From a virus (Duplodnaviria > Heunggongvirae > Uroviricota > Caudoviricetes), in IMG/VR virus record IMGVR_UViG_3300006143_000348: a stretch of 64,000 bases of DNA. One strand, given 5' to 3'. Below the pieces are notes generated by a model, which was given only the letters and a program-made list of their open reading frames with translations, made no database searches and was not told where the DNA came from. This document shows positions 1,083 to 27,220 of this stretch, piece by piece. The translations under genes were made by a program, and so were the position numbers. Numbering within the stretch: position 1 is the stretch's first letter; the number at the start of each line of letters is the position of its first letter.

Positions 1083-1898
1083 TCACTGTGTAACAGTTGA
1101 TTTATGTATATCTGAAAACTCAACGCTATGTACTTTTTTAGCAGAATTTCTTTTACGTAGTACCGAATTTATACGGTGTTGTAAGTCAATTTCTTCCGCA
1201 CATGCTTTACAATACTTCTGTTTCCGGCCTTTTTGTGGGTTGTTATATTTTACGGTGATGCCACAGTTTACGCATTCAAAGTATGGTTCCCCGACATATT
1301 TTAAATATTGGTATCCAAGATTTCGGAAATCAGTTATCTCAAGGGCAGTCTCACCTTCCTCTGCAAAGCATACCCGGACATTTGTGTTGTCAATGCGCTT
1401 GGAGAAACGAAGCACCCCTAGTTCTTTCAGCGCGCCGAACATAGCACACTGTCTTTTGATGGATGTGTTGATATTCGCCATAGCCATGATTTCATTATCC
1501 CTGTTCTTTACCCAATAATCGGTGACAGGGGATACGGCATACCAGTATTTGGCGAGGCACAGCAAAGTAAACGCCAACCTCCTGAGTTGCCTGCCGCCGA
1601 TGGAGTCGATTCTGTCCATTTCGGGCTTTGTTATGATGATGCTTTGGATATCTATGGCTCCGTACTTTAAAGCGCGTTTTAGGGCATTATCCAGCGTCTC
1701 AGACCATGTGGTTAATGACGCGGACGGGTCGCACTGGATGAGGAATATGTCTAGTCTCTTACGAACTTCTGTTTTGGAATATCCAGAATCAAGGTAATAC
1801 CTTGCGACGCGGTAGAGCGTCTGATATGGCTTTTTGCCGAGCGACCTGTCTTGAATCATCTTTTCAGCCCATTCGTTTTCTTTTAATATAATATTCAT
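1083..1898 (-). CDS. Hypothetical protein with C-terminal Zn-ribbon (CVNCG...CKAC); possible DNA-binding/replication accessory
   Basis: 271-aa ORF. Its stop overlaps the start of the upstream 914-aa gene (ATGA overlap at 1895-1898). C-terminal motif CxxC-x17-CxxC. Confidence 0.65.
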   Translation of the reverse strand: MNIILKENEWAEKMIQDRSLGKKPYQTLYRVARYYLDSGYSKTEVRKRLDIFLIQCDPSASLTTWSETLDNALKRALKYGAIDIQSIIITKPEMDRIDSIGGRQLRRLAFTLLCLAKYWYAVSPVTDYWVKNRDNEIMAMANINTSIKRQCAMFGALKELGVLRFSKRIDNTNVRVCFAEEGETALEITDFRNLGYQYLKYVGEPYFECVNCGITVKYNNPQKGRKQKYCKACAEEIDLQHRINSVLRKRNSAKKVHSVEFSDIHKSTVTQ

Positions 1899-4639
1899 TC
1901 GTCCACCTCAATTTCTTTTGATATCATTTTGAATTTGCTGCCGCGGTAACAGATGTCCCCACTATTGTCCCTCGTAGGGAATGACAGCGTATGGTTATTG
2001 TTTGCAAGTAAGTTATGGATAATTTCTGTGCCGCATATATTCCATGCGAAGTTTTTCGTGGCGCTTTTGGTATAACATAGGTCGAGTAGGATATCGCATA
2101 AGGAATATTTATTTTGACAGATAATATCACATTCTTTTCTAAAGTTATCGTTCATATCCAATAATTGTACGTGTGAAGCAAATTTATCCATGCGCCTGTA
2201 CTCTGCGGAAACAGAATACTCCTGCAGTTTTTTATTGTAATTTGTGTACAGCTTCTGGATTGCCTTATATTGGGCGGCGGTGTAAGAAGCCCCGCTCTTC
2301 ATAATTGTGTAGTCAAATTTAGATTCTGCATTATGTTTACCGACATATCCATCAAATTCCTGCTCGAATCTCCTGCAAATCCGGTTCATCACACAGTCGC
2401 TGGTGCCGACGGGCATCCGGTATTCATAGTATTGGAGGAAGTCGGCCTGACGTTCAGTCAGCTCTTCGGGCGGAATCTGCTGAAGCTCACTTACGGTCAT
2501 CTGGAACTCACGGAGGGCATTCTTGTCCGTGCTCTTAACGTATTGGCTGTACTGCTTCATCAGGGAAGGGTATATGTACCGCATAAAGTACGGCTTCTTG
2601 TCGGCTACGATACTCCTGCAGAATTCACGCTGAGCATCGTCCTCTATCTTGTTTACAGCGTGGAGGTCGTGCCATGTCTTTGGCATCGGCTTGCAGATGA
2701 TGCCCTTAGCCTTGTCGATGGCGTTCTGCTGGTAGAGCTGGCCGCAGCAGATGCGGTAGGAGAGGGTTTCGTATTCAAGGCTTCCTTTTTCGAACCTGGA
2801 GCGAACCTCGAACATGGAAGTAATCCAGTTCGTAGTCTGCCCGATGTCGTTCCCGAAGCTCCCGATATTCGACTCGATGAAATCTTGCTCCGTGGGGATT
2901 GATTTGGCCGCTTTCCGCTGGGCGCACATCAGGGAGGGGAGCTGCTGGAGCTTTTCAACCAATACGCGGTTGTCGGTAAGCATGACTAAGTCTCCGTCGA
3001 AATCCATGCCGTTTAACGCGGCTGTGGCGGTGTCCCATGCATTGAAGACGGTGCATGTCTTCAAATGTTTATACCAGTAGCGTATCTCCTCCGTATCGGC
3101 TGGATGCACGAGGCGGATGTTGTTGTGGCACGTCATGGGCGCACGGTAGCAGGCAAGCCTGTCGGCACCCTCGTCTGCCCAGTACTGGTTGTATATCTCC
3201 CCTGGCCTCAAAAGCCCGGTTACGTCTAGGCCGAACATGCTCTGGCATAACGCATAGGGGTCTCCAGATACGATGGAGTAGTTGCCGTGAACCTTCAAGA
3301 CGCCGACTTTGGCTTCCTTGATGCGGGTTTTAATGAGCCGGTAGATGCTGCTTTGGATGAACGGGTCTTCAATCATGCGCTGGTCGGCCATGATAGCCTT
3401 TATGTAGTCATCCTCCAGGCTATTGATATTGGACTCGTTCAGCCCCATGCCGCGCAGGAACAGGATGGTCTTGCGCCAGTCCCCGCCCAGGACGTCCCTG
3501 ATTTCGTCCATCGTGGGGGCAATCAGCTCCTCTATGTCATCGTCGTCCAGGTCATAACTCTGGATGAATTGGTAGTTCAGGGAGCGCTCGTTTTCCAATG
3601 CCTTCGGGCATGTCTTTGCAATCCCGAAGGTATAGCCGTTGCGCAGCGAGTTCTGTACGTAGTCCTCGCAGCTTTTGTAACTATCCCAGAGCTTGACCAT
3701 AGACGTGGTAAGAATCAGCTCCACATTGCGCACGTCGACCTCATCCCCCCAGGCATCGCGGATGGTGTAGTTCCCTCCAGCGACCTTATCGGCGAAATCC
3801 AGGAAATCAAAGGTGATGGCCATGCCCTTTTCGAAAGAGAAGCGGGTGTTGGCTCCGCTGACCACATAGCCAAGCCCCAGCTCCCGGCTCCAGCGCTCGG
3901 CAAGGGAGGGGAGCATGATACCGTAGCCGTCTGATGCGTCCATGTCAATTTTCTCGGATTTTCTGGGCTGCATCAGTGGCTCATCCTCGCATTCATCCGT
4001 CAGGTACACGATATCCGACAGGAAGCTGGTATTGCAGTCATCCACGACGGCGATGCCTTTCGGGAACGATACAGGGACGGAGGCGCTGCACGTAAGGGCT
4101 TGGTACGCTTCGAGCTTTGCCGTCACCATTTCCTTCTGCATGTCGCGCCCATTAGCTATGCGGCGCTTCAGTTCATCAGCAATGGCGCTGTTTACGAACA
4201 CGATGGTGCTGTTTTTGATGCCGCCATTTGTCCCAAGGAGCCTTTTGTAATGGATGCCGTTGATGGAAAAGCCCTTGCACGCCCTGTAGTAATCCTTCTT
4301 CCTGTCTATTATCAGGCAGACATAATCGGGCTTGTATTGCAGCCGGTCAAGCTCTGCGTACAGGGATTTCATCATCCGGCGGCTCTTAATGCTGTTCGCC
4401 TCGGCTCTGAGTTGGCGGATGTCAGATTTTATCTGGCGTGCTTTCGCGTCAGAATCAGGGGTTTCATTTATGGAGTCAATCCAGCGGAGCATCTGGCTGT
4501 CAGCCAGGGAGATTACTTCGTTGTTCCTGCGCGCTTCTTCGATTGGGAGGGTAAGTTTCCATTTTTCTTTGCGCAGGCGGCTGCTGTGCAGCTTATAAAT
4601 GTATTTTTGGCAGGTTAATTGCTTACTGATAAAAGTCAC
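1895..4639 (-). CDS. Large (914 aa) protein with 'GMDFDGDLVML' motif; candidate single-chain two-barrel RNA polymerase (YonO/QDE-1-like). Tentative.
   Basis: Long uninterrupted ORF in an operon with the ATPase and Zn-ribbon genes. The central motif GMDFDGD resembles the NADFDGD/DxDGD Mg-binding loop of beta' and of YonO/QDE-1 DPBB polymerases. No family A/B DNA-polymerase motifs were seen. Confidence 0.7.
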   Translation of the reverse strand: MTFISKQLTCQKYIYKLHSSRLRKEKWKLTLPIEEARRNNEVISLADSQMLRWIDSINETPDSDAKARQIKSDIRQLRAEANSIKSRRMMKSLYAELDRLQYKPDYVCLIIDRKKDYYRACKGFSINGIHYKRLLGTNGGIKNSTIVFVNSAIADELKRRIANGRDMQKEMVTAKLEAYQALTCSASVPVSFPKGIAVVDDCNTSFLSDIVYLTDECEDEPLMQPRKSEKIDMDASDGYGIMLPSLAERWSRELGLGYVVSGANTRFSFEKGMAITFDFLDFADKVAGGNYTIRDAWGDEVDVRNVELILTTSMVKLWDSYKSCEDYVQNSLRNGYTFGIAKTCPKALENERSLNYQFIQSYDLDDDDIEELIAPTMDEIRDVLGGDWRKTILFLRGMGLNESNINSLEDDYIKAIMADQRMIEDPFIQSSIYRLIKTRIKEAKVGVLKVHGNYSIVSGDPYALCQSMFGLDVTGLLRPGEIYNQYWADEGADRLACYRAPMTCHNNIRLVHPADTEEIRYWYKHLKTCTVFNAWDTATAALNGMDFDGDLVMLTDNRVLVEKLQQLPSLMCAQRKAAKSIPTEQDFIESNIGSFGNDIGQTTNWITSMFEVRSRFEKGSLEYETLSYRICCGQLYQQNAIDKAKGIICKPMPKTWHDLHAVNKIEDDAQREFCRSIVADKKPYFMRYIYPSLMKQYSQYVKSTDKNALREFQMTVSELQQIPPEELTERQADFLQYYEYRMPVGTSDCVMNRICRRFEQEFDGYVGKHNAESKFDYTIMKSGASYTAAQYKAIQKLYTNYNKKLQEYSVSAEYRRMDKFASHVQLLDMNDNFRKECDIICQNKYSLCDILLDLCYTKSATKNFAWNICGTEIIHNLLANNNHTLSFPTRDNSGDICYRGSKFKMISKEIEVDE

Positions 4640-4681
4640 CTCACTTAATGAATTATTTAATTAACATGATATAGTAAAAAT

Positions 4682-4858
4682 TAATCCTCGTACTGGGATA
4701 TGTATGGATGCCATTCCTCATAAAACTCCTGGCGGCGGCGTTCGATGAGCGCCTCTGGAGCTGAATCGTCCAGGCCGTTATTCAAGGGGGAATAGTACTG
4801 GCATGGCGTGTTTTCAGGGCAGCAGTTATTGTAGTAGCAGTTTGAACATTTAAGTTTC
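4682..4858 (-). CDS. Cys-rich micro-protein (58 aa), MKLKCSNCYYNNCCPENTPCQYY...
   Basis: Not in the ORF track (under 60 aa). RBS ggaggtatct precedes the ATG at 4858. The start overlaps the stop of the upstream ATPase gene by 9 nt. Five Cys sit in the first 20 residues, followed by an acidic/basic tail. Confidence 0.4.
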
Positions 4859-6103
4859 ATAGATACCTCCTTTGCTTACTTCATTTATCCAGTTGATAAG
4901 TAATGTCCTCATCCGGCGGCTTGGTATGTAGATGCTGATTTCCTTCCCATCCCGTATGGCAGAGCGCCAAATCCATTGAATCATGGTTGAGAGGGCATAT
5001 CGTTCCTGGTCTAATACCAGCCCCTTGTCATAGTAGTATGTTACAATCCCAGTGTTGGGGAATAAATTTACCGGATAAACAAGGGCTGTTTTCTCACGGT
5101 AGTCGTTTGTGGATTTTTTGTTAAAGGCAAGCTTGCTGTTCCAATATCCTTTATTGCGTATCTTTGACCAAGTTCCGGCTTCTGAGTAAGTGCCGCAAAG
5201 CCTCTGGGAAGCGCTTACATGCACTTTGTGCTTGAAATAATTGCTGATGCAGCAGCGCAATTCGTCTACTTTATCGGGGTTCTTCTCGTACCAGTTCATT
5301 GACAGGGCATTCCTGTTCTTCCCAATGGCGTTTAGCTTTTCATCGTCGAATATATGTATCTTTTCAGATAAGGAGTTTATATAAGCGGGCATATCTCCGG
5401 GTTTGTCTGTTAGGGCGTAGGAAGAGTCTCCGCGGCGCTCCACGCCGATATACTGGTATTTGATGCCACACATCTGGAAAAACAAGTCCATCTCTGAGCC
5501 TTTGAACAGATAAGTCAGCAGTATGACCTCATTGGCGCACTCAAGGAAGTCCTTTGGGTATATCCAATACCATAAGCTGGCATTGCCTTCGGAACTTCCG
5601 ATGTTTAGGAGCGGCCTGGTTTCCATGATGCGGAACATCTTGCGGAATACAGTCCCGGTGTATTCCTTGTCTGTTTTGGTATAACAGCCGTTTTTGGATT
5701 CCTGCAGATATCCAGCATCAATCAATAGTCTGATATCCCCGTCGGAGACGTCGGCTCCTTTTTCAAAGACTGTAATTTCCTCGTCTATGATGATGGTATA
5801 GTTTTTCTCGCGGAGCATATCCAGGGTATCCTGCGTGTAGTAAAGCACGGCCTGGTGTGTGCTCGCGATGTTGTGCCCGGCTTCTATTAGAGCCATTGTG
5901 TGCCTTGCCTTGCTGAATCCATATTCTTTAATTTTGCAGCTCGGCTCCATGAAATGGGCGCTAGGGCATGATTTGTTGATTCTTGCGGCTTCATCCAGAT
6001 AGGGTGTGATGTATAGGAACCTTTTTTCTGGATGGGCATTGATGTGTGAAATAACGGCGCTCGTCTTGCCGCCGCCCATGATAGTATCGCAAACTTTAAT
6101 CAT
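4850..6103 (-). CDS. P-loop NTPase (Walker A 'GGGKTS', Walker B 'IIIDEE'); putative helicase/replication-type ATPase
   Basis: 417-aa ORF, the first gene of the leftward operon. Starts MIKVCDTIMGGGKTSAV, with a DE-type Walker B motif. Confidence 0.75.
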   Translation of the reverse strand: MIKVCDTIMGGGKTSAVISHINAHPEKRFLYITPYLDEAARINKSCPSAHFMEPSCKIKEYGFSKARHTMALIEAGHNIASTHQAVLYYTQDTLDMLREKNYTIIIDEEITVFEKGADVSDGDIRLLIDAGYLQESKNGCYTKTDKEYTGTVFRKMFRIMETRPLLNIGSSEGNASLWYWIYPKDFLECANEVILLTYLFKGSEMDLFFQMCGIKYQYIGVERRGDSSYALTDKPGDMPAYINSLSEKIHIFDDEKLNAIGKNRNALSMNWYEKNPDKVDELRCCISNYFKHKVHVSASQRLCGTYSEAGTWSKIRNKGYWNSKLAFNKKSTNDYREKTALVYPVNLFPNTGIVTYYYDKGLVLDQERYALSTMIQWIWRSAIRDGKEISIYIPSRRMRTLLINWINEVSKGGIYET

Positions 6104-6966
6104 TTATATTGTCCTCCTGATATGGTGATTACTTGGTGGATAGTTACGGGTGGGTACAGATGGATACGGAGGGGAATTACGGGCGTAGCCCAGTGCAGTT
6201 CCTTCTATATTAGATGTCAAAAAGTAGTTTGGCACGACCTAGGTTCCAAGAGGTATTTCGCAGACCGGCGAAAACGCCTGTGGGGCAACGTGTTTTTGGA
6301 TATTTTCGGAGTGCGGTCTTTTTAAAGAAACAATCTTAAATATATATTTATAGAGCATACATTGTTTTCACGTCGTTTTCCATGCTATGTTGTTTCCCTC
6401 CTTTTCGTGTTCTTTGTTTCAATCATTCGTTCGGTCACAGAGCTGTTGTTTTCTAAAAGGACTCGCACCTTTAAAGCAACGTCGTATTCCTGACAGGCTC
6501 GGACACACTATCCGAACTCATTCCCCTACTTGAATTACCTGGACAAACATCTTATTTAGTTAGCAAGATAATCCAAAAAGAAAAGATGTAAAACACCTTA
6601 TTTTATTATCTTTATTATATCATGGGAAAACATGTATGTCAACGCAATAAATATCCAGGAATGAGATTAAAATACAGGTAATTCACTGCTGGGTAAAGCA
6701 ACGTTGATTACCGTTGTTTTTGTATTGGATAAATATTTAATTAATTGAGTATAAATTATTGGAGAATCAGTAATTATCGTGAAAATAGAAAGAGAATAAT
6801 GGACGGGGTTGAATAAAGTTAGTATGTGGGAGATGGAGTGACCATAAACAAATGTTCGGAATACGCGTTCGATAATACCATAACTATGGGGCGTTCTATG
6901 TTAAATAGTGTGAAAAGTGAACATAGGGTTCTGGAATAGTAATCATGATAGTGTCTGAAAACTCAC

Positions 6967-6980: not shown

Positions 6981-7001
6981 AACTTTTTTAAAAAAAGTAC
7001 T

Positions 7002-7030
7002 TGACATACAGTTGATATAGTGCTATCATA
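7002..7030 (+). promoter_or_regulatory. Sigma-70-like promoter TTGACA-N17-TATCAT
   Basis: TTGACAtacagttgatatagtgcTATCAT, about 150 nt upstream of the regulator gene. Confidence 0.35.
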
Positions 7031-7175
7031 GGACTTGTCAAACACAAGGACAGGCAAACATAACCAATACAGACACAATCAATCATTAAACCCGGTCCAG
7101 TGTTGACACACACAACAATATGACATGTCCGTACTGCAATATGGACGCAACTAAGAAAAAATGGAGGACAGTAAC

Positions 7176-8147
7176 ATGAAAAACAAAGAAATGAGAGAAG
7201 CAAGGACAGCAACTACAAACAACGCCTTTACAGAAACCCTTAGACGTTTCGAATCCACCTATCGCTTGAACAAAGATTCTAAAGCATACGCCGAAGCACT
7301 GAATAGCTTAGCAACCGCAGTAGCCTATAGCGTACTGAAAAAGTGTATCGACGTTTCCCAGAACCCACAACTGAAAGAAGTCAGAGCTAGCATTGCAAGG
7401 GACACGGCACGATTAGAAGCTATTAGGTACAGCGGTGCACATGCGTTCGAGACAGTGTTCACTAGTGACGGGGACATGGCACGCAAGACAGTTGATTCCA
7501 GTATGAGGGACGCACAAGACAAGTTAGCAAGTGAGTGCTTAGGTGACGGACTCGACCTTGTAAATACGGCTATCATCTCCATCCTGGGAGAGACAGCGAA
7601 AGCAATCGAGCGTGGCGAACTGGACAGCGACTTTTTGGAGAAACCCTACACCGTGCGGCGGCTTAAGAAAAAGGTTTGGATTAAGTCAGAGGACAGCGTC
7701 GGGGGCTGGGAAACGGCAGAGACAACGCCTATACAGGAGGTGTATAAGGAAGTTCGCCGGGCGATTGACGCAAGCCGGGCGATGAGCACGGACGCAAGAA
7801 ACGGTTACTCTTACTTGGAAGAGTTATCCTATGACGCTGAGTCGGACGCAGAGTCAGTCATCTATCGTAGGCTGTCCAAGTATGCAGACTTAGGCGGATA
7901 CGCTACAGATTTCAATGGAGCGTGCACACTGTACAGCGCAGACAGCCAGACAGCGGATGACATGGACACACTCATTGAACTTTTGGAGTTGACAGCAAGA
8001 CAAGCGCAGGTGCTCAAGTTAAGGCTGGCAGGGCATGGCTACAAGTCAGTAGCTACCTATCTAGGTGTTGATGTTCGGGCAGTAAAGGACGTATTAAAGA
8101 ACATCCAGCAAAAAGCACTAAAGGCAGGACTCAAACCAAGATTCTAA
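7176..8147 (+). CDS. Sigma-70 region-4-like HTH regulator (possible phage sigma factor)
   Basis: C-terminal 'LTARQAQVLKLRLAGHGYKSVATYLGVDVRAVKDVLKNIQQK' is a sigma region 4 / LuxR-type HTH. The start at ATG 7176 is preferred over 7161, because GGAGG at 7163-7167 is followed by the ATG after 8 nt. Confidence 0.7.
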   Translation: MKNKEMREARTATTNNAFTETLRRFESTYRLNKDSKAYAEALNSLATAVAYSVLKKCIDVSQNPQLKEVRASIARDTARLEAIRYSGAHAFETVFTSDGDMARKTVDSSMRDAQDKLASECLGDGLDLVNTAIISILGETAKAIERGELDSDFLEKPYTVRRLKKKVWIKSEDSVGGWETAETTPIQEVYKEVRRAIDASRAMSTDARNGYSYLEELSYDAESDAESVIYRRLSKYADLGGYATDFNGACTLYSADSQTADDMDTLIELLELTARQAQVLKLRLAGHGYKSVATYLGVDVRAVKDVLKNIQQKALKAGLKPRF

Positions 8148-8156
8148 ACCCAAAGA

Positions 8157-8183
8157 GGGACGGCGGAAGCCGTCCTTTTTTTG
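8157..8183 (+). terminator. Rho-independent terminator (GGACGGC-GGAA-GCCGTCC followed by T7)
   Basis: Perfect 7-bp stem with a GNRA-like loop and a T-run, immediately after the regulator's stop codon. Confidence 0.8.
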
Positions 8184-8221
8184 TTGGACAAAATCAGATA
8201 TGAACATTTGTTTATCTGTCC

Positions 8222-9430
8222 CTTTACGGCAGAGAGTGGATGTAAGGCGGGCTGGATGAGAGAGGATGAGAAAAAGGATAGCAAACATATGTTTACCCCC
8301 CTTTTTGCGGTAGAGTGTGGGAGCAGTAGCCCGCTGAAGCCCGCACGTCCTGTCAGACGCCATAAAACGCCCGTATACGCCGCTGGACAGCGTAGGCTAT
8401 GGATAGTAGCCCTCACATGGAAAGAATGCAATGCGGGCTGGATAAGCCGTCTACAGGGGCAGAGTTGTACCTTTGCGGTAGAGAGTGAGGGCAAGCCAAA
8501 CGCCCCCGCCAGAACGAGCTGGGAAACCGGGACGCGAACGACTGTTCAGGGTAGCCACTTTACGGTAGAGAGTGAGGGCAAACCAAACGCCCTCGCCAGA
8601 ACGAGCTGGGAAGCCGGGACACGAACGGTTGTTTACTCCCCCCTTTGCGGTAGAGAGTGAGGGCAAACCAAACGCCCCCGCCAGCACGAACTGGGAAGCC
8701 GGGACACGAACGGTTGTTTACTCCCCCCCTTTGCGGTAGAGAGTGAGGGAAACCGAGCGACTCCCGCCAGCACGAACTGGGAAGCCGGAACACGAACGGT
8801 TGTTTACTCCCCCCTTTGCGGTAGAGAGTGAGGGAAACCGAGCGACTCCCGCCAGCACGAACTGGGAAGCCGGGACACGAACGGTTGTTTACTCCCCCCT
8901 TTGCGGTAGAGAGTGAGGGCAAACCAAACGCCCCGCCAGCACGAACTGGGAAGCCGGGACACGAACGGTTGTTTACTCCCCCCTTTGCGGTAGAGAGTGA
9001 GGGAAACCGAGCGACTCCCGCCAGCACGAGCTGGGAAGCCGGGGGACGAACGGTTGTTCCGGTTGTACCTTTGCGGTAGAGAGTGAGGGCAAGCCAAACG
9101 CCCCCGCCAGCACGAACTGGGAAGCCGGGATACGAACAGTTGTTTGCCTGCCCCTTTGCGGTAGAGAGTGAGGGCGAACCAAACGCCCCCGCCAGTGCGA
9201 GCTGGGAAGCCGGGGGAACACGAACGGATGTTCAGGGTCACTACTTTGCGGTAGAGAGTGAGGGCAAGCCAAACGCCCCCGCCAGAGTGAACCGGGAAGC
9301 TGGGGGACACAAACGGTTGTTTGCCCCCCCTTTGCGGTAGAGAGTGAGGGCAAGCCAAACGCCCCCCGCCAGCACGAGCTGGGAAGCCGGGGGAACGAAC
9401 GGTTGTTTACTCCCCCCTTTACGGTACAAG
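8222..9430. repeat. Tandem array of about 14 units of about 86 bp. Unit consensus: CTTTGCGGTAGAGAGTGAGGGCAAACCAAACGCCCCCGCCAGCACGAACTGGGAAGCCGGGACACGAACGGTTGTTTACTCCCCC
   Basis: The unit starts (GCGGTAGAGAGTG) recur at about 8226, 8307, 8475, 8562, 8647, 8733, 8818, 8903, 8987, 9073, 9158, 9248, 9334 and 9421. Spacing is 84-90 bp. The first two or three units are degenerate. Each unit contains the hairpin GGGC-AAACCAAAC-GCCC. Confidence 0.9.
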
Positions 9431-9936
9431 GTGGAAGCCCTTAAACCGACTCGATAGCGGTTTTAAAAGATACTATCGCTCTGAGTAATCAGTGCACGAG
9501 CGGTTATCCGCCTGTGAGAGTACATCTGCTACCAGATGCGTCGCTGGGTGCGTAGGAAGTAAGCCTATGGTTCGGATAGTGAAAACCCCCAGAGTTACAC
9601 CCAATTAGATGTGAAAAGAGGTCGCATCTGCCTGAATGCGTCACCATGAGGGACTTCACCTTGAAAATCTTCGAGGGCGTCCAACGCAACGATATCAGTG
9701 CCCGAGGGCACATCGGCTATGTTCCGAGGAATTAAATGCCGGATTGTTTCTGGACGTCTGAAAAGACAGAGTAAAGGGAAGACAATAGAATATTGAGACA
9801 GCCGCCCTCCGGGGCGGTTGATGAGCATATATAGAGCATCCGAGACTTTAGTTATGAATCTGGCTACGCGGCATCGTTTCGGGTGTTCTGTTATGGGCTT
9901 ATCCATAAAAATAAATAGCCGAAAGGAGAAAACGAT

Positions 9937-10695
9937 ATGGCAAACACAACAGTAGAAAAGAAGGTATTAAGCAAGGCGGAACTAAGGGAAAGAGTGGAAG
10001 CGCAGGTAAAAGAGTTTAACGATTTTGTCCAGAATAGCGATTTCGAAGAAGCGGCAAAACTTAACGACGCTATCAGCGCTGACGTGAACGAGTATACATC
10101 TATCGCCCGCAAAGAGGTTTTCGACGCCCTTAAAGCGTCTGAAAATCCGATGCTAGAAGCGGTAAAGCAGTTGACATACCCGACTATCCGTGTGAGGGAC
10201 ACGAAAGAGGGCGAAGAGAAGATTCCTGTCCGCGTAGTTGAGGATATCGAACGCCCTATCGACTTACTGAAGCTTCATAAGCACGTAGGCGGCGACGGAA
10301 TCGGCGCTGACAAACAGTGGGTGTATATGGCGGAGAAGTTTAATATGCTTATGACCGCGCAGAAAGCGGTCGACCTCGGTATCGACCCGAAAGCGGTAAA
10401 CGACAGTTATGCTATGAGTGATATCAGCAAGGAAATTGACATGGGGAAAACGCCGACGAGCAAAACGAACATCCTGAAAACCTTAAATTCGGTAGTCCAG
10501 GCAATGGTAGGCGAGGAATATAAGGCGAAATCCCATGACGTGAACTTCCTGATATCCGTATACAGCCGGAAAGGGCGGAAAGCCTTAACCGTCACCTGCG
10601 CGAACCATAAGTTCATGCGGCAGTATCTCGCGGAAATCTGCCACCGTGTTGTGCTGAATAAGGCGTATGGGATTGAGTTCAAGGCGAGCAAATAA
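9937..10695 (+). CDS. Hypothetical protein (252 aa)
   Basis: An AAAGGAG RBS lies 7 nt upstream. Clean ORF with no recognisable motif. Confidence 0.8.
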   Translation: MANTTVEKKVLSKAELRERVEAQVKEFNDFVQNSDFEEAAKLNDAISADVNEYTSIARKEVFDALKASENPMLEAVKQLTYPTIRVRDTKEGEEKIPVRVVEDIERPIDLLKLHKHVGGDGIGADKQWVYMAEKFNMLMTAQKAVDLGIDPKAVNDSYAMSDISKEIDMGKTPTSKTNILKTLNSVVQAMVGEEYKAKSHDVNFLISVYSRKGRKALTVTCANHKFMRQYLAEICHRVVLNKAYGIEFKASK

Positions 10696-12268: not shown

Positions 12269-12721
12269 TTGGAAGGGATTGAGATTTTCAGCAACGAGGA
12301 ATTTGGTGAAATTAGGACGGTGGTTATTGATGGTGAGCCTTGGTTAGTTGGGAAAGACGTGGCGGTTGCGCTGGGGTATAAGGATACAGTAAATTCCTTG
12401 AAAGCCCATATTGACGAAGAAGATAAAAGGGGGTGGCGAATCACCACCCCTAGAGGAGAGCAGACAATGACGATAATTAACGAATCCGGCCTATACTCCC
12501 TCATCTTCGGCAGCAAGCTGGAATCCGCGAAGCGTTTCAAGCACTGGGTAACATCCGAGGTTCTTCCTGCAATTCGCAAAACAGGCAGGTATATTGCACC
12601 ATCTGAGGGCACGATGGAATCTATGTTTGAAGCTATGAGCTGCGATATGAAAATGGTTTATGAGCGGATGAGCAATATAGAATCTATGATGCAAGAACAA
12701 GCAAGGGGTAACGATTCGTGA
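12269..12721 (+). CDS. Bro-N domain antirepressor paralog, C-terminally truncated (lacks ORF6C domain)
   Basis: 'MEGIEIFSNEEFGEIRTVVIDGEPWLVGKDVAVALGY' is Bro-N. Compared with the copy-B paralog 22319..23023, the ORF stops right after the 'NIESMMQEQ' linker. An AGGAGGG RBS is present. Confidence 0.7.
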   Translation: MEGIEIFSNEEFGEIRTVVIDGEPWLVGKDVAVALGYKDTVNSLKAHIDEEDKRGWRITTPRGEQTMTIINESGLYSLIFGSKLESAKRFKHWVTSEVLPAIRKTGRYIAPSEGTMESMFEAMSCDMKMVYERMSNIESMMQEQARGNDS

Positions 12722-12911
12722 CCCCTTATCAAGATAAAAAGGAATATGGGGGGGGGCAAAACGCCCCCTCATCTTGGAACATTAAAATGATAAGCAGGGA
12801 TTTTGCATTATAGAAGCGATAGGGGAATTGCTTCTCAGGTGTTGCTAATCTGGCAACACCTCAAATGGCAAATGGGGTCGCGATTTGCGCTCCTATCAAG
12901 ATAAAAATAAA

Positions 12912-13628
12912 ATGAAAGAGGTATTCACAGTGGAAAATGTAGCATTAATTCAGGGGACGGAATTACAGGTCAAAGAGTATCAGGGGAACAGGGTTGTGAC
13001 GTTCAAGGATGTTGACAGGGTACATCAGAGGCCGGACGGGACAGCAAGAAGGCGGTTCAACGATAATAGGAGGCGATTTCTTGAGGGGACGGATTTCTTT
13101 AAAATAACGCCGTCCGAATTTCGGACAGCGATTGGGGATATGGACTTGCGGCAGCAGAATAACGTAACCCTTCTTACCGAAAGCGGCTATCTCATGTTAG
13201 TAAAGTCTTTTACTGACGACTTAGCCTGGAAAGTCCAGAGGGATTTGGTGAACACATACTTCAAGATGAAAGAAGTAGTGGAATCCGCTACCCCGGAAGA
13301 AACAGGGATGGTTCTTACGCAAGAGGGTTTTGCAGATGCAGTCCATGCACTGACCGGGTGTGCAAGCATATTCCAGTCGATGCTCGACTACTCCACAATC
13401 AACTATAAGCAACAGCAGGAACTTTTGCAGGCGGCAAGGCGGCGGGTCAGCCAGCTTCTTGGCGGGGCGCATTCAGACAGGTACAAACAGTCGTCCAGAA
13501 CATACTTCAGGAATCTCTGGCAGGATTTCTGCGAGTACTTCTCTTGCGGCTCGTACCGGGATTTAAACCCGCAGTACATGGTAGATGACGCTGCGGCAAG
13601 GTGGATTTCAGAGTGGTCATATGGCTGA
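12912..13628 (+). CDS. ORF6N(KilA-N-like)-ORF6C antirepressor-like protein
   Basis: 'VTFKDVDRVHQRPDGTARRRFNDNRRRFLEGTDFF' is an ORF6N-type N-terminus. C-terminus 'NYKQQQELLQAARRRVSQLLGGAHSDRY...YRDLNPQYMVDDAAARWISEW'. The track ORF starts at 12885. ATG 12912 matches the start of the near-identical copy-B gene at 23100. GTG 12930 is an alternative start. Confidence 0.8.
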   Translation: MKEVFTVENVALIQGTELQVKEYQGNRVVTFKDVDRVHQRPDGTARRRFNDNRRRFLEGTDFFKITPSEFRTAIGDMDLRQQNNVTLLTESGYLMLVKSFTDDLAWKVQRDLVNTYFKMKEVVESATPEETGMVLTQEGFADAVHALTGCASIFQSMLDYSTINYKQQQELLQAARRRVSQLLGGAHSDRYKQSSRTYFRNLWQDFCEYFSCGSYRDLNPQYMVDDAAARWISEWSYG

Positions 13629-14590: not shown

Positions 14591-14712
14591 GTGTAAATAG
14601 GGGAAATCCAGAAGGTTTTAGATAAATAAAAGCGAGCAACAAGTACACGGACGGGCTGCGGGGCGCTGAGCCTCCGCAGCAGTTCAAGAATATAAAACGA
14701 GGAGGGATGAGA

Positions 14713-15009
14713 TTGAATAAGGAAGATATGGTTCGTAAGGTTTCTAAGGACACCAAGTACAGCCCTGATGTAGTGAGGGAAATCACGGAGTCGCTGCTGG
14801 GAAACGTCGTGTCGGCCACGGCGGGTGGTGAAAAGGTATCCATTTCCGGGTTCGGGACATTTGAGCCAGTGGAAAAGAAAGCGAGAACAGGAAGGAACAT
14901 ATGTGCAGGAAGGCCGGTGCATATCCCGGCACATGTTGCCCCGGTTTTCAGGCCGGCAAAAGCATTTAAAGAAGCTGTATACAGAGAGGTGAAGCCATGC
15001 AGAACATAG
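14713..15009 (+). CDS. hup: HU/IHF-family DNA-binding protein
   Basis: 'VSISGFGTFEPVEKKARTGRNICAGRPVHIPAHVAPVFRPAKAFKEAV' matches the HU beta-arm region (GFGxFE...ARxGRNP...IP...P.FKPGKALK). A TTG start at 14713 is proposed, because GGAGGG at 14699-14704 lies 8 nt upstream. The track start ATG 14707 abuts the SD sequence. Confidence 0.8.
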   Translation: MNKEDMVRKVSKDTKYSPDVVREITESLLGNVVSATAGGEKVSISGFGTFEPVEKKARTGRNICAGRPVHIPAHVAPVFRPAKAFKEAVYREVKPCRT

Positions 15010-16424: not shown

Positions 16425-16861
16425 CTAGCAGGCAATGCTAAATAGTCCCATGTGAGAGTAATTTCACATGCAAATCTATCGAATTGCTGGGAACCCCTAA
16501 AGCTCGCAATACCACAACGTAAGAATGAAAGAAATCTAAGCGTGACGGTAACGAAAGTAGAAAGAAATTGCGAGATGGCGCAAGGTTAAATCCTAAACGC
16601 TTTTGCAATGGGCAATCAGCAGCGAAGCTCCGAACAGGAGAACGTTCAACGACTATCCCGTAAGGGAGTAGGGCGCAAGCGGTCGGTGTCCGAAGTGGTA
16701 GACACCCTGAGAAAAAGGGCGATGATATAGTCTGTACTGTAGGGAAACTTACAGAAATCTCTTTGGAGGCAGCATGGAACAGCGAGCCATGCTGAACATA
16801 ATAGAATGCATAGGAGCTTGTAGCACAGTGGCAAGCGGGTTAGGCAACTAGCCCGCTTGTT

Positions 16862-21047: not shown

Positions 21048-21770
21048 TTGGAAGAGATTAATATTTTTAGTAATGAGGAGTTTGGTGAAATTAGGACGGT
21101 AATTATTGATGGAGAGCCGTGGCTTGTAGGAAAGGATGTAGCGTTGGCGTTGGGATATTCTGAGCCGAGAAGTGCTGTTTCAAAAAGAGTAGATAAAGAA
21201 GATAGAGGTGTTGCCAAAACGGCAACACCATCGGGGATACAGGAAATGACCATCATTAATGAATCTGGTTTGTACGCCCTTATCTTTGGAAGCAGGCTTG
21301 AATCCGCGAAGCGTTTCAAGCACTGGGTGACATCCGAAGTTCTCCCTGCAATCCGCAAAACAGGCAGGTATATTGCACCATCTGAGGGCACGATGGAATC
21401 TATGTTCGAAGCCATGAGCTGTGATATGAAAATGGTTTATGAGCAGATGAACAAATTTGATGAGCGGATGGAAAGCGTAGAATCCATGATGCAGGAACAG
21501 TCAGGGAAATTAAACCAGGTAGTAGACAATATGACTCTGACAACCAGACAGCAACAGCGGATTTATAAAGCAGCGAAAGATAGAATCAACCATCTGCTCG
21601 GCGGCGCACATTCTGAGGAATATAAAAGCCGTTCTAAAAGCTACTTCATTAACTTATGGAACGGTCTAAAAGCAGAGTTCGAGTGCGGCGGGTCGTATAA
21701 GGACTTGAATCATGTCTATTTCGATGCTGCGCTGGGGTATATTGGGTCGTGGCGGTATGTAGAAACATAG
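21048..21770 (+). CDS. Bro-N + ORF6C antirepressor paralog
   Basis: 'MEEINIFSNEEFGEIRTVIIDGEPWLVGKDVALALGY' is Bro-N. The C-terminal ORF6C region is near-identical to 10914..11678. Confidence 0.85.
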   Translation: MEEINIFSNEEFGEIRTVIIDGEPWLVGKDVALALGYSEPRSAVSKRVDKEDRGVAKTATPSGIQEMTIINESGLYALIFGSRLESAKRFKHWVTSEVLPAIRKTGRYIAPSEGTMESMFEAMSCDMKMVYEQMNKFDERMESVESMMQEQSGKLNQVVDNMTLTTRQQQRIYKAAKDRINHLLGGAHSEEYKSRSKSYFINLWNGLKAEFECGGSYKDLNHVYFDAALGYIGSWRYVET

Positions 21771-22318: not shown

Positions 22319-23023
22319 TTGGAAGGGATTGAGATTTTTAGCAACCAGGAATTTGGTGAAATTAGAACGGTGGTTATTGATGGTGAGCCGTGGTTTGTGG
22401 GGAAGGATGTAGCGTTGGCGTTGGGGTATGAGAAGCCGAGAAATGCCATAGCTACACATGTTGATGTAGAGGATAAAAAGGGAGCCCCGATTCAGGGCTC
22501 CCCTGGGGGAACACAGGAAATGATTGTCATTAACGAATCTGGAATGTACGCTCTGATTTTTGGAAGCAAACTTGAATCCGCGAAACGTTTCAAGCACTGG
22601 GTGACATCCGAAGTTCTCCCTGCAATCCGTAAAACAGGCAGGTATATTGCACCATCTGAGGGTACGATGGAATCTATGTTTGAAGCTATGAGCTGCGATA
22701 TGAAAATGGTTTATGAACAGATGGGCAATATAGAATCTATGATGCAAGAACAGTCAGGAAAATTGAACCAGGTAGTAGACAACATGACTCTGACAACCAG
22801 ACAGCAACAGCGGATTTATAAAGCAGCGAAAGACAGAATCAACCATCTGCTCGGCGGCGCACATTCTGAGGAATATAAGAGCTGTTCTAAAAGTTACTTC
22901 ATTAACTTATGGAATGGGTTAAAAGCAGAGTTTGACTGTGGCGGTTCGTATAAGGACTTAAACCCTGTCTATTTCGATGCCGCGCTGGGGTACATCGGGT
23001 CGTGGCGGTATGTGGAAACATAG
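22319..23023 (+). CDS. Bro-N + ORF6C antirepressor paralog
   Basis: Full-length counterpart of the truncated 12269..12721. AGGAGGG RBS. Confidence 0.85.
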   Translation: MEGIEIFSNQEFGEIRTVVIDGEPWFVGKDVALALGYEKPRNAIATHVDVEDKKGAPIQGSPGGTQEMIVINESGMYALIFGSKLESAKRFKHWVTSEVLPAIRKTGRYIAPSEGTMESMFEAMSCDMKMVYEQMGNIESMMQEQSGKLNQVVDNMTLTTRQQQRIYKAAKDRINHLLGGAHSEEYKSCSKSYFINLWNGLKAEFDCGGSYKDLNPVYFDAALGYIGSWRYVET

Positions 23024-23099
23024 TCGGGAAATAACTTAATTTCAGTCTGAGTAGCAAAGGGGGTCGCAAATCGCGACCCCCTTTCAAGATAAAAATAAA

Positions 23100-23819
23100 A
23101 TGAAAGAGGTATTCACAGTGGAAAATGTAGCATTAATTCAGGGGACGGAATTACAGATTAAAGAGTATCAGGGGAACAGGGTTGTGACGTTTAAGGATGT
23201 TGACAGAGTTCACCAGAGGCCGGATGGGACGGCAAGAAGGCGGTTCAACGATAATAGGAGGCGATTTCTTGAGGGGACTGATTACTTTAAAGTTTGTGCG
23301 TCCGAAATTCGGACGCACAACATTATGGACATATCAAGCAAAGCACATGAAGATATGACCCTCCTTACTGAAAGCGGCTATCTCATGTTAGTAAAGTCTT
23401 TTACTGACGACTTAGCTTGGAAAGTCCAGAGGGATTTGGTGAACACATACTTCAAGATGAAAGAAGTAGTAGAATCCGCCACCCCGGAGGAAACAGGAAT
23501 GGTTCTCACGCAAGAGGGTTTTGCAGATGCAGTCCATGCACTGACTGGGTGTGCAAGCATATTCCAGTCGATGCTCGACTACTCCACAATCAACTATAAG
23601 CAACAGCAGGAACTTTTACAGGCGGCAAGGCGGCGGGTAAGCCACCTTCTCGGCGGGGCACATTCGGACAGGTACAGGCAGTCGTCCAGGATATACTTCA
23701 GGAATCTCTGGCAGGATTTCTGCGAGTACTTCTCTTGCGGCTCCTACCGGGATTTAAACCCGCAGTATATGGTAGATGACGCTGCGGCAAGGTGGATTTC
23801 GGAGTGGTCATATGGCTGA
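23100..23819 (+). CDS. ORF6N(KilA-N-like)-ORF6C antirepressor-like protein (copy B of 12912..13628)
   Basis: Near-identical to copy A except for a divergent segment ('FKVCASEIRTHNIMDISSKAHEDMT' vs 'FKITPSEFRTAIGDMDLRQQNNVT'). Confidence 0.85.
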   Translation: MKEVFTVENVALIQGTELQIKEYQGNRVVTFKDVDRVHQRPDGTARRRFNDNRRRFLEGTDYFKVCASEIRTHNIMDISSKAHEDMTLLTESGYLMLVKSFTDDLAWKVQRDLVNTYFKMKEVVESATPEETGMVLTQEGFADAVHALTGCASIFQSMLDYSTINYKQQQELLQAARRRVSHLLGGAHSDRYRQSSRIYFRNLWQDFCEYFSCGSYRDLNPQYMVDDAAARWISEWSYG

Positions 23820-24210: not shown

Positions 24211-24980
24211 GTGGAAGTAATTGAGATTTTTTTTAGCAATGAAAAATTCGGGGAAATCAGGGCGGTAATCACCGATGGCGAGCCGTGGTTTGTGGGGAAA
24301 GATGTGGCGACGGCGTTGGGATATAAAGACGCAAAAAAGCTTTAAAAGTTCATGTTGATGAAGAGGATAGACAGTTAATCCAAAGGGGGCAAACCGCCCC
24401 CTTAGAAATCCCGAATCGTGGAATGACCATCATTAACGAATCTGGCTTGTATGCCCTTATATTTGGAAGCAAACTTGAATCTGCTAGGCGTTTCAAACAC
24501 TGGGTAACATCCGAAGTTCTCCCTGCAATCCGCAAAACAGGCAGGTATATTGCACCATCTGAGGGGACGATGGAATCTATGTTTGAAGCTATGAGCTGTG
24601 ATATGAAAATGGTTTATGAACGAATGAGCAATATAGAAAGTAAAATTGATGAGCGGATGGAAAGCGTAGAATCCATGATGCAGGAACAGTCAGCTATGAT
24701 GCAGGAACAGTCAGGAAAATTGAACCAGGTAGTAGACAACATGACTCTGACAACCAGACAGCAACAGCGGATTTATAAAGCAGCGAAAGACAGAATCAAC
24801 CATCTGCTCGGCGGCGCACATTCTGAGGAATATAAGAGCTGTTCTAAAAGTTACTTCATTAACTTATGGAATGGGTTAAAAGCAGAGTTTGACTGTGGCG
24901 GTTCGTATAAGGACTTAAACCCTGTCTATTTCGATGCCGCGCTGGGGTACATCGGGTCGTGGCGATATGTAGAAACATAA
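24211..24980 (+). pseudogene. Bro-N + ORF6C antirepressor paralog disrupted by a frameshift (track ORFs 24115..24345 and 24423..24980)
   Basis: The N-terminal part (VEVIEIFFSNEKFGEIRAVITDGEPWFVGKDVATALGYKD) ends at 'AKKL*' inside an A-run. The +1 frame then continues KVHVDEEDRQLIQRGQTAPLEIPNRGMTIINESGLY.... Intact paralogs read straight through. Confidence 0.6.
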
Positions 24981-26080: not shown

Positions 26081-27220
26081 ATGTTCTATATTACAGTTAA
26101 GCAGTCGCCAATGTATCATCAAATGACATTGGAAGAGTTTCTGTTTAATACAGAAGTTAAAAGTACATGTATTAATCCAAATATGACCAATACACGTACA
26201 TACGAAATAGCGGAAATCAGTGAAAGGTTTTTAGGGACGGTAGATGTAAGGAAATTGATAGCAAAGCTTGTCCAGTTCAATGATTCCGTCGCAGAATTAA
26301 AGAGCGCTCCAAGACATGAGCTTTACCATACGTTCCATATCCCGAAGAAGAGCGGAGGGTTAAGGAAGATTGACGCCCCGAATGCAGAATTAATGGATGC
26401 GCTGAGACGGCTGAAAACCATTTTCGAGGAAGATTTCAAAGCCTTGTACCATACGTCCGCATTCGCATATGTGAAACACCGCAGCACCTTAGATGCTGTG
26501 AAGAGACACCAGGCGAATGCAAGCAGGTGGTTTGGGAAATACGACCTTTCCAATTTCTTCGGGAGCACGACTCTGGAATATGTAATGCATATGCTCGGGA
26601 TGGTTTTCCCATTTTCGGAGGTACTGAAGCAGGGGATTGGGAGAAGCGCATTAAGCGATGCACTGGAGCTTGCATTCCTTGATGGGGCTTTGCCGCAGGG
26701 GACGCCATTATCCCCGCTGCTTACTAACATCATAATGATTCCGGTGGATTTCAAGCTGGCAAACACATTAAGGGAATATAATCATCAGCGGTTTGTTTAT
26801 ACAAGGTACGCTGATGATTTTTTAGTTTCATCCAGATACCAGTTCAGCTTCCGGGAGATTGAGGCACTGATAATATCGACGCTCGCTGATTTTGGCGCGC
26901 CGTTTACCATTAATCCAGGGAAGACCCGGTATGGGTCATCCGCGGGTTCAAACTGGAACCTTGGAGTGATGCTGAACAAAGACAATCAGATTACCGTGGG
27001 ATACAAAAAGAAACGGCAGTTCCAGGCGATGCTGGCATCGTATGTCATGGACAGGAGGAATGGGACGCCCTGGGATAAGACGGACATCCGGGTAATGGAA
27101 GGATACAGGAACTACTATAGGATGATTGAGAAAGAAACCATTGACGCTATGGTAAAACATGTTGGCGATAAATTTGGCGTTGATATCGTGGCGTTAATTA
27201 AGACAGATTTGAAAATCTGA
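26081..27220 (+). CDS. Reverse transcriptase (retron/Abi/DRT-type, 379 aa)
   Basis: RT motifs: 'IPKKSGGLRKI' (motifs 1/2), 'FGKYDLSNFFGS' (A), 'LPQGTPLSPLLTNI' (B), 'YTRYADDFLV' (C, YADD). No maturase or endonuclease domain. AAAGGAAGG RBS. Confidence 0.9.
   Translation: MFYITVKQSPMYHQMTLEEFLFNTEVKSTCINPNMTNTRTYEIAEISERFLGTVDVRKLIAKLVQFNDSVAELKSAPRHELYHTFHIPKKSGGLRKIDAPNAELMDALRRLKTIFEEDFKALYHTSAFAYVKHRSTLDAVKRHQANASRWFGKYDLSNFFGSTTLEYVMHMLGMVFPFSEVLKQGIGRSALSDALELAFLDGALPQGTPLSPLLTNIIMIPVDFKLANTLREYNHQRFVYTRYADDFLVSSRYQFSFREIEALIISTLADFGAPFTINPGKTRYGSSAGSNWNLGVMLNKDNQITVGYKKKRQFQAMLASYVMDRRNGTPWDKTDIRVMEGYRNYYRMIEKETIDAMVKHVGDKFGVDIVALIKTDLKI

Follow-up and report, generated by a model that had tools for sequence, protein, structure and literature searches.

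Locus and anatomy of the array

In a 64,000-nt stretch of viral DNA (Caudoviricetes; IMG/VR record IMGVR_UViG_3300006143_000348), analysed at its full length and called the window below, a tandem array of non-coding repeats separates the gene of a sigma-like regulator, here termed R, from a conserved gene, here termed gpD. The repeats carry an oriented DNA site, termed S, which comparison with related phages suggests to be the recognition site of R. The locus comprises the following features.

7001-7029, plus strand: sigma-70-type early promoter of R, TTGACA-17-TATCAT with an upstream TG; 11 of 12 consensus matches
7161-8147, plus strand: regulator R, 328 amino acids, with a C-terminal helix-turn-helix (HTH) of the sigma-4/LuxR-GerE type; proposed reader of the array
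8158-8182, plus strand: intrinsic terminator of R, GGACGGC-GGAA-GCCGTCC followed by a T run
8205-8240, plus strand: first isolated degenerate copy of S, with left box TTGTTTATCTGTCC and core CTTTACGGCAGAGAGTG at 8223, one mismatch to the core; repeat family D4
8286-8321, plus strand: second isolated degenerate copy of S, with left box TGTTTACCCCCC and core TTTTGCGGTAGAGTGTG at 8304; from core and repeat scans and comparison with relatives
8322-8469, plus strand: unique, non-repeated spacer of about 150 nt between the isolated copies and the tandem array; repeat family D6
8470-9417, plus strand: tandem array of 11 units of 84-90 bp, arranged head to tail; from Tandem Repeats Finder and a repeat finder
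9418-9433, plus strand: truncated terminal core copy TTTACGGTACAAGGTG, with the majority left box just before it; closes the array
9434-9936, plus strand: conserved non-coding leader from the array to gpD, with RAGATH-16 and other blocks that align between phages
9523-9594, plus strand: RAGATH-16 RNA motif (RF03047), inside the leader and outside the repeat; 75.1 bits against a gathering score of 65.6
9937-10695, plus strand: gpD, 252 amino acids, highly conserved; first gene past array and leader, opening a co-directional set that extends to the end of the 64 kb

Tandem Repeats Finder, run on the 64-kb window together with a repeat finder for the unit starts, defines a single large array (8470-9426; period 85, 11.1 copies, 85% matches), as a preliminary description of this DNA had proposed to check. 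The units start at 8470, 8557, 8642, 8728, 8813, 8898, 8982, 9068, 9153, 9243 and 9329, the first of these about 290 nt past the intrinsic terminator of R, and the GC content of the array is higher than that of its flanks. A 16-nt core, TTTRCGGTAGAGAGTG, occurs 14 times in 8223-9433 with up to 3 mismatches, against 0.74 copies expected by chance in 64 kb. No further copy was found elsewhere in the window, and a general promoter motif was rejected on this ground. The array announced in the preliminary description is therefore real, downstream of the terminator of a sigma-70 region-4-type gene as stated (7161-8147, HTH of the Sigma70_r4_2/GerE type), but its count of about 14 tandem repeats resolves into 11 tandem units, two isolated degenerate cores and one truncated core. 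The isolated copy at 8205-8240 is also kept in a 95%-identical relative (L132). A 21-nt direct repeat (8240-8260 and 8426-8446) has one arm inside the unique spacer.

The units had been called near-identical, which does not hold: their pairwise identity averages 82% (range 67-99%), and 42 of 91 alignment columns vary. Each unit consists of an invariant core, CTTTGCGGTAGAGAGTGAGGG, a variable internal segment and, at the 3' end, a hypervariable left box that abuts the core of the next unit. The run CGGTAGAGAGTGAGGG is invariant across all 11 units, and such a run arose in only 11 of 20,000 column shuffles. Because 11 of 11 units keep the core despite a mean divergence of 18%, either constraint on each copy or homogenisation confined to the core can be argued. 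Variation is concentrated in three zones, namely a 13-15-nt internal segment, the loop of a CCAG...CTGG element, and a 10-13-nt box just 5' of the core that exists in 5-6 versions. This last box makes the earlier statement that there are no unique spacers only half right. The internal segment contains the hairpin previously ascribed to every unit, which takes the form GGGC-N9-GCCC in eight units but GGGA...TCCC in three, and which is not used in the consensus fold of the units computed with RNAalifold.

The array is non-coding and has no recognisable RNA family or conserved RNA fold. As the preliminary description had argued, a repeat protein can be ruled out, since the unit lengths (84-90 nt here, 42-85 nt in relatives) are mostly not multiples of three and reading frames break at each unit. 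An array of clustered regularly interspaced short palindromic repeats (CRISPR) was rightly set aside as well: about 70 of the 85 nt per unit are shared, only 10-13 nt vary, the versions recur, and there are no cas genes among the annotated neighbours. At the level of RNA, no Rfam family matches the array at the gathering score or at E≤10, the only Rfam matches found being RAGATH-16 and a group I intron, neither inside the array, and a scan for transfer RNAs (tRNAs) and transfer-messenger RNAs found none. Individual units are no more stable than their dinucleotide-shuffled versions, whichever strand is folded (z from +0.8 to -1.1). With RNAalifold, the 11 units gave weak consensus energies on the two strands (-15 and -9 kcal/mol) and no pair with a compensatory change on either; across 29 unit types of related phages the program gave no consensus structure. 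The best proposed hairpin around the core is paired in 67.6% of cells, compared with 62.3% in shuffles.

The array in related phages

Related loci, numbered with the prefix L, were gathered through homologues of R and through the downstream gpD. Homologues of R are numerous (990 at E≤1e-3), and family members of 328-418 amino acids carry extra domains; gpD is 55-77% identical in related viral and metagenome contigs, one contig being identical to the window. In all gathered loci the order is the same: R, a terminator right before the array equivalent to that of the window, at least one unit, a conserved non-coding leader of 0.5-1.2 kb, and gpD. RAGATH-16 is found in the leader of many relatives, seven of which (L039, L040, L042-L044, L046, L053) have it at the same leader position.

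The units of relatives measure 42-85 bp and are present in 1-6 copies in assemblies, usually 100% identical to each other; single-copy relatives include L035, L032, L100, L119, L122 and L047. These copy numbers are lower bounds, because many contigs break off within the array: of the 31 obtained through gpD, about 20 start within 0.5-1.1 kb upstream of that gene, and of the 45 obtained through R, 17 stop shortly past R. The true copy numbers are probably higher than the assemblies show. Short-read assemblies break or carry gaps exactly at the array, for example in L045, L049, L054, L056-L079, L086-L124 and L132-L140, with N-gaps in L085 and L139, and near-full-length contigs (such as those of 119,280 and 115,998 bp) start and end inside it.

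The window comes from an SPbeta-like phage, since it encodes a YonO-type polymerase and a YonV_C-like neighbour. The polymerase, a single-chain enzyme of 914 amino acids (1895-4639, minus strand), matches Pfam RdRP (PF05183). Among cultured phages it is related to the YonO-type RNA polymerases of Clostridium phage c-st (40% identical), Enterocloster phages and SPbeta. The neighbouring 417-amino-acid protein (4850-6103, minus strand) is YonV_C-like. Judged from their sequences, the related phages form a large family of uncultured SPbeta-like gut phages with a YonO-type RNA polymerase. No close relative was found among GenBank phages by blastn or megablast, tblastn of R and gpD against GenBank phages gave no match, and a scan of species genomes with gpD for a host or prophage returned nothing. 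SPbeta has no equivalent array near yonO and no homologue of R detectable by tblastn. A scan of IMG/VR with the exact 16-nt core returned 30 single matches, which were judged to be due to chance. We found no description of RAGATH-16 or of such arrays in SPbeta-like gut phages in the literature.

An oriented site with additional copies

When the 29 unit types are anchored on the core, they reveal an oriented tripartite site, S, of about 35 bp. It consists of a lineage-specific left box (for example GGGTACACCC, CCCCACCC, CGGTTGACCC, GGGGGTTGCCCC or TTTCCTAGTGG), the core (C/T)TT(G/A)CGGT and, four bases on, a right box, RGTG-N-GG. The left and right boxes tend to be similar to each other, in the manner of direct repeats spaced by about 20 nt (z=3.9, 0 of 500 permutations, a value uncorrected for relatedness).

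The array is not the only position of S. In relatives the same TTGACA promoter stands before R with one copy of S ahead of it: in about 30 of them a stretch of 14-25 nt made up of left box and core recurs once, exactly or nearly so, 12-40 nt before the -35 of the R promoter. The upstream copy is also present in a clade whose R is only 31% identical. A scan of IMG/VR with the class-A site GGTACACCCYTTGCGGT retrieved 75 stretches, and 10 of 10 class-A contigs that include both loci have a third full S on the other strand, at a distance of 41-47 kb from the array. This third copy stands 72 nt upstream of the ATG of a gene for a 155-amino-acid protein, which is followed by reverse-transcriptase, endolysin and holin genes; the interval between this copy and the start of the 155-amino-acid gene contains no sigma-70 hexamers. 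S is found at 1-3 places per genome and always flanks R.

In all three contexts (array, R promoter and distant operon), the orientation of S matches that of the downstream gene. Such tracking is the behaviour of a promoter or of a promoter-proximal activator site, and would not be expected of a symmetric operator, a centromere or an origin. On inspection of the aligned sites, a TGNRRR motif can be seen 16-18 nt past the left-box hexamer; almost every array copy has it, as do about 8 of the 14 upstream copies. This spacing hints at a -35/-10-like geometry.

Two simpler geometries were tried and rejected. The TTGCGG of the core cannot serve as the -35 of a classical sigma-70 promoter, there being no -10 at the correct distance, and Class I activator phasing of the upstream copy finds no helical periodicity in its distance of 12-40 nt to the -35.

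Sites resembling S also occur in other arrangements. Short-period arrays (about 24-38 nt) with mixed left boxes, including GGGGGTTGCCCCCTTGCGGT, GGGTACACCCCTTGCGGT and GGGTTCCCCCCTTGCGGT, are seen in L169/L183 (at about positions 60-200), L165, L153, L163 and L168, and S-like sites stand beside a tRNA-like 3' end in L154, L160 and L201. From these sequences the family of S motifs appears to be wider than the R/gpD locus.

Covariation of the regulator and the left box of S

R has only sub-threshold matches to Sigma70_r4_2, GerE and HTH families in Pfam and none in PHROGs; by domain test it contains a sigma-4 domain, the domain that reads the -35 element. Alignment of the HTH of 36 distinct R proteins beside their sites separates six classes of recognition helix, which map one-to-one onto classes of left box as follows.

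Helix TQRA[IV]AKT: left box GGGTACACCC
Helix RPDSVRD: left box CCCCACCC
Helix SHQAIAKT: left box CGGTTGACCC
Helix [ST]xQA[VI]Q[NK]: left box GGGTTG[CT]xCC
Helix DxxNVxR: left box GGGTGACCCCCC
Helix KEESVRSV: left box TTTCCTAGTGG

The same helix and box recur in R backbones that are just 37-45% identical (L120/L123, L085/L108, L031/L102), and backbones that are 69-75% identical can differ in both helix and box (L109/L114, L100/L115). Loci retrieved with the class-A site and holding R within the stretch carry the TQRA[IV]AKT helix in 14 of 14 cases. The R of the window and that of its 95%-identical relative differ mainly in the recognition helix, and the first array units of the two carry different boxes.

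Proposed function and alternatives

The interpretation favoured here is that the array consists of tandemly amplified, oriented DNA sites that are read by R and act in cis, as promoters or activator sites, in the control of rightward transcription; we give it a probability of about 0.6. That the array consists, more generally, of protein-recognition sites acting at the DNA level is a reading that can be considered quite likely. A site array is favoured because S recurs at the R promoter and at a distant operon and because its left box co-varies with the recognition helix of R. The preliminary description had held that none of the candidate roles could be decided from sequence, which was too pessimistic, as related loci tell the options apart. 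Among the roles it listed, a titration array for the adjacent regulator survives in part: sites for the adjacent DNA-binding protein are what the comparison favours, but titration is not their best-supported role, since S is oriented, lies upstream of operons and resembles a promoter or activator site. While the anatomy, synteny, orientation rule and protein-site covariation are observed, binding of S by R and activation as its result are what we infer.

In the proposed mechanism, R would be made early by the host RNA polymerase from the sigma-70-type promoter and would recognise S, its sigma-4/LuxR-type HTH reading the left box, while the core and right box would be read by another part of R or by a polymerase that R recruits. 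Bound at S, R may act as a sigma-like factor or as an activator, starting or boosting rightward transcription through the leader, with its RAGATH-16 motif, into gpD and beyond. In relatives, R would in addition feed back on its own gene through the upstream S, and the far copy would switch on the reverse-transcriptase/lysis operon on the other strand. Extra copies could be gained and lost by unequal recombination. Tandem copies may multiply entry points or the local concentration of R. As some relatives manage with a single copy, the presumable effect of further copies is greater occupancy and output. R may be a true sigma factor, a class-I-like activator or a specificity factor of the YonO-type polymerase.

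Several observations weigh against this interpretation. The HTH-coding region and the array are adjacent, and their covariation could partly reflect co-inheritance or cassette exchange; exchange of a cassette is, however, insufficient as an explanation, because the match extends to the upstream copy, at a distance of 1.2 kb, and to the far copy, more than 40 kb off. The window and its 95%-identical relative differ from about 30 relatives in having no autoregulatory S upstream of R, as a scan of the window with a hidden Markov model and an ungapped scan indicate, and no further S is present in the 64 kb of the window, so that the argument for a regulon rests on relatives. A sigma-2 domain, which would bind core polymerase and melt the -10 element, is at most a possibility in R. 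The core, which is the most conserved part of S, would fall into the 'spacer' of a classical -35/-10 promoter, and the upstream S often lacks the right box and is not set at a fixed distance from the sigma-70 promoter, which leaves a textbook sigma promoter geometry no more than a possibility. Finally, the array of the window mixes 5-6 left boxes, for which a single cognate regulator creates no obvious need.

The mixture of boxes might mean that the array of the window is multi-specific, responding to or soaking up regulators of co-infecting relatives, an idea to which we attach little weight. The majority left box is TGTTTACTCCCCCC; a minority box, GTTGTACC, is as in L086 and L100, two others (CAGGGTAGCCAC and CAGGGTCACTAC) resemble the class-A box CAGGGTACACCC, and GTTTGCCCCCCC resembles class D. 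Mixed-box arrays are present in other phages as well (L169/L183, L165). If the idea were true, multi-specific arrays would be a cis-acting device of competition or cooperation between phages, and could also be a substrate for the evolution of new orthogonal regulator-site pairs.

An explanation in terms of repression is improbable. S would then be an immunity-type operator for another phage protein, such as the master repressor of lysogeny, and the array, bound by that repressor, would form a roadblock or a centre of nucleation that separates the early gene R from the rightward genes. Phages of the SPbeta type do have a repeated operator at early promoters, bound by a repressor with a tyrosine-recombinase fold (PMC10516654), and both the window (35716-36531) and L085 (4412-5224) encode tyrosine-recombinase-like proteins; S is, moreover, lineage-specific in the manner of immunity determinants, and one copy lies at the early promoter of R. 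However, the left box tracks the recognition helix of R across unrelated backbones and S always flanks the R gene, whereas no candidate repressor gene is consistently adjacent. Operators also need no orientation, which S maintains upstream of operons on both strands.

The units may alternatively be tandem promoters for the YonO-type polymerase (1895-4639, minus strand), possibly with R as its specificity subunit. The form of S would suit this role, as it is compact (about 20-35 bp), oriented, divided into a variable upstream and a conserved downstream part, and present 1-3 times per genome, like the promoters of single-subunit polymerases. The polymerase gene is always within 4 kb, and YonO of SPbeta uses one promoter upstream of a non-coding RNA and the first late gene (PMC5467207). 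Yet what follows the array is a set of antirepressor, replication and accessory genes rather than structural late genes as for SPbeta YonO, the variable box co-varies with R and not demonstrably with the polymerase, and SPbeta has no comparable array. Polymerase promoters are an improbable explanation.

Neutral expansion would concern only the extra copies, which would be a satellite derived from one functional site by replication slippage or unequal crossing-over. Copy number does range from 1 to 11 among close relatives, a single copy suffices in the six single-copy relatives named above, and in most assemblies the copies are 100% identical, which implies recent turnover. On the other hand, arrays are found in most lineages of a very diverse family, and a core of 16-21 nt is invariant in all 11 units of the window, so that either each copy is constrained or the core alone is continually homogenised. 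Neutrality is quite improbable.

Centromere, origin and packaging functions, which the preliminary description had also listed, find no supporting partner genes. In its most explicit form this reading makes the array a centromere-like partition site or an iteron-type array for replication or copy control, with R as a centromere-binding or initiator protein. The form does fit, in that direct repeats stand in tandem directly behind a gene for a DNA-binding protein and, in relatives, one more copy lies at the promoter of that gene; the transcription strand switch is only about 2 kb away. Even so, the reading is very hard to sustain: no gene for a ParA, ParM or TubZ partner and nothing with a Rep-like fold is seen, the adjacent genes instead coding for YonV_C-like and YonO-like proteins, R is sigma-like, replication genes are about 40 kb away, the third S precedes an operon in promoter orientation, and several phages have a single copy.

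The suggestion that the units work as transcripts, whether as tandem small RNAs, as a protein sponge or by processing themselves, draws on the position of the array in a long non-coding region with RAGATH-16 and conserved blocks, on the short local hairpins of the units and on a hammerhead-like sequence after gpD in one relative, but is highly improbable given the folding, covariation and Rfam results reported above, namely no match at E≤10, folding equal to that of shuffles, no compensatory pairs and no consensus over 29 unit types, and given that in relatives S also lies upstream of a promoter and hence outside the same transcript.

The preferred reading, in which R recognises the array as a set of promoters or activator sites, would supply a testable function for a conspicuous repeat at which assemblies of abundant uncultured SPbeta-like gut phages of about 115 kb break. 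It links that repeat to some 1000 sigma-like regulators, all of which lack an informative name from any source and score below the curated cut-off for every Pfam domain. The natural helix-box pairs are candidate orthogonal regulator-promoter pairs, and would form a data set for a recognition code of sigma-4-type HTHs. RAGATH-16 would gain a defined transcriptional context, and the array may help to answer which signals and factors direct the transcription of long operons in phages with a YonO-type polymerase.

Other features of the window and its relatives

A perfect sigma-70-type promoter (6614-6642, minus strand) diverges from the promoter of R (7001-7029, plus strand). It serves the polymerase gene and the YonV_C-like gene, which are transcribed divergently from R. 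Upstream of the R promoter lie conserved non-coding blocks (window 6800-6930; L031 5630-5745; L036 5680-5790), which include ATGTGGGAGATGRAGYGAC, ACCATAAC and the inverted repeat CTATGT-N17-ACATAG and are common to distant relatives. An HU-like gene was called by the preliminary description at 14707-15009, and in Enterocloster phage PMBT24 the polymerase gene has a neighbour annotated as a histone-like DNA-binding protein.

The leader (9434-9936) contains no strong sigma-70 promoter and a weak one at 9763-9791. Near RAGATH-16 it has a conserved block at 9690-9745 (GATATCAGTGCCCGAGGGCACATCGGCTATGTTCCGAGGAATTAAATGCC), and the whole leader may form a single large structured RNA or serve as an element of the antitermination type. 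No assignment was obtained for gpD in Pfam, PHROG or the PDB, and sequence searches of the PDB with the 417-amino-acid protein, R and gpD gave nothing useful. Directly after gpD, L032 has a hammerhead-like sequence (CTGATGAGTCG...CGAAAC; 8318-8370); L046 has RAGATH-36 and tRNAs further downstream.

All genes from R to the end of the 64 kb are on the plus strand, among them antirepressors, which follow gpD, replication genes and a ribonucleotide reductase. Paralogous cassettes of the antirepressor type (12467-13628, 21246-21770, 22520-23819 and 24423-24980) have near-identical N-termini (MTIINESGLYALIFGSKLESAKRFKHWVTSEVLPAIRKTGRYIAPSEGTM) and encode ORF6N/ORF6C proteins. The hairpins at 12741-12757 and 24388-24404, once thought to be related to those of the array, contain no core motif and are ordinary stem-loops after genes; they are GC-rich, of the type GGGGGC-AAAAC-GCCCCC, and have no clear T run. 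A group I intron (RF00028, 82.5 bits) lies at 16430-16754 among short open reading frames of the plus-strand cluster. The rightward cluster also encodes, at 26081-27220 and 28394-29503, a reverse-transcriptase-like protein (phrog_2825, phrog_1423) and an ATPase (phrog_2376). The reverse-transcriptase cassette of class-A relatives (155-amino-acid gene, reverse transcriptase and lysis genes), which has a copy of S ahead of it, looks like a cassette of the diversity-generating type or of another type of retroelement. Tyrosine-recombinase-like proteins are encoded at 35716-36531 (271 amino acids) and 45035-45994 (319 amino acids) and, in L085, beside R at 4412-5224 (270 amino acids); they could be integrases or MrpR-like repressors as in SPbeta.

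Comparison with known systems

Protein-bound direct repeats also flank the gene of their binder in sopC of F (12 x 43 bp), parC1/parC2 of pB171 and incC-repA-incA of P1. The R locus resembles these in geometry only, with a site at the promoter, an array downstream of the gene and a variable copy number. It differs from them in having no partition NTPase or Rep initiator, in a sigma-like R, and in an S that is oriented and also found before a distant operon.

In extracytoplasmic function (ECF) sigma factors, the recognition helix of sigma-4 sets the specificity for the upstream element, and the cognate promoter is autoregulated. Shared with these are the cognate site upstream of the regulator's own gene (in relatives only), a small regulon and many orthogonal protein-site pairs. 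By contrast, the core of S lies in the would-be promoter spacer, a -10-like TGNRRR is common but not universal, and there is no anti-sigma gene. To our knowledge, tandem promoter amplification is not a feature of ECF systems.

SPbeta itself offers two points of reference. Its YonO polymerase uses a single promoter upstream of a non-coding RNA and the first late gene, the promoter sequence and cofactors being unknown (PMC5467207), and its operator SPBRE is a repeated 15-bp sequence dispersed at about 10 promoters and bound by the repressor MrpR (PMC10516654). The phages studied here share with SPbeta the YonO-type polymerase, the YonV_C-like and HU-like genes, a small number of phage-specific transcription signals per genome and a non-coding RNA between signal and first gene; R and the array, however, set them apart from it.

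The closest functional parallel is provided by the Ltr activators of Gram-positive phages (RinA, ArpU, the sigma70_r4-like LtrA, LtrB/DUF1492 and LtrC), which bind phage-specific direct repeats immediately distal to their own genes (PMC3753634; PMC3152322). Their specificity resides in the C-terminal region, one promoter switches on a whole operon, and the repeat regions consist of 2-4 short repeats within about 59 nt (PMC3753634). The repeats of the window likewise follow right after the end of the regulator gene, there are few targets per genome, and the site stands at the head of a long operon. R is, however, two to three times larger than these proteins and has no RinA/ArpU family match in Pfam or PHROGs. 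It opens a rightward early cluster instead of preceding terS, and the downstream genes are neither terS nor structural. The units are longer (42-90 bp) and reach 11 or more copies, with copies also upstream of R and of a distant operon. By this analogy, R and its array would work like an Ltr system without being a member of that group.

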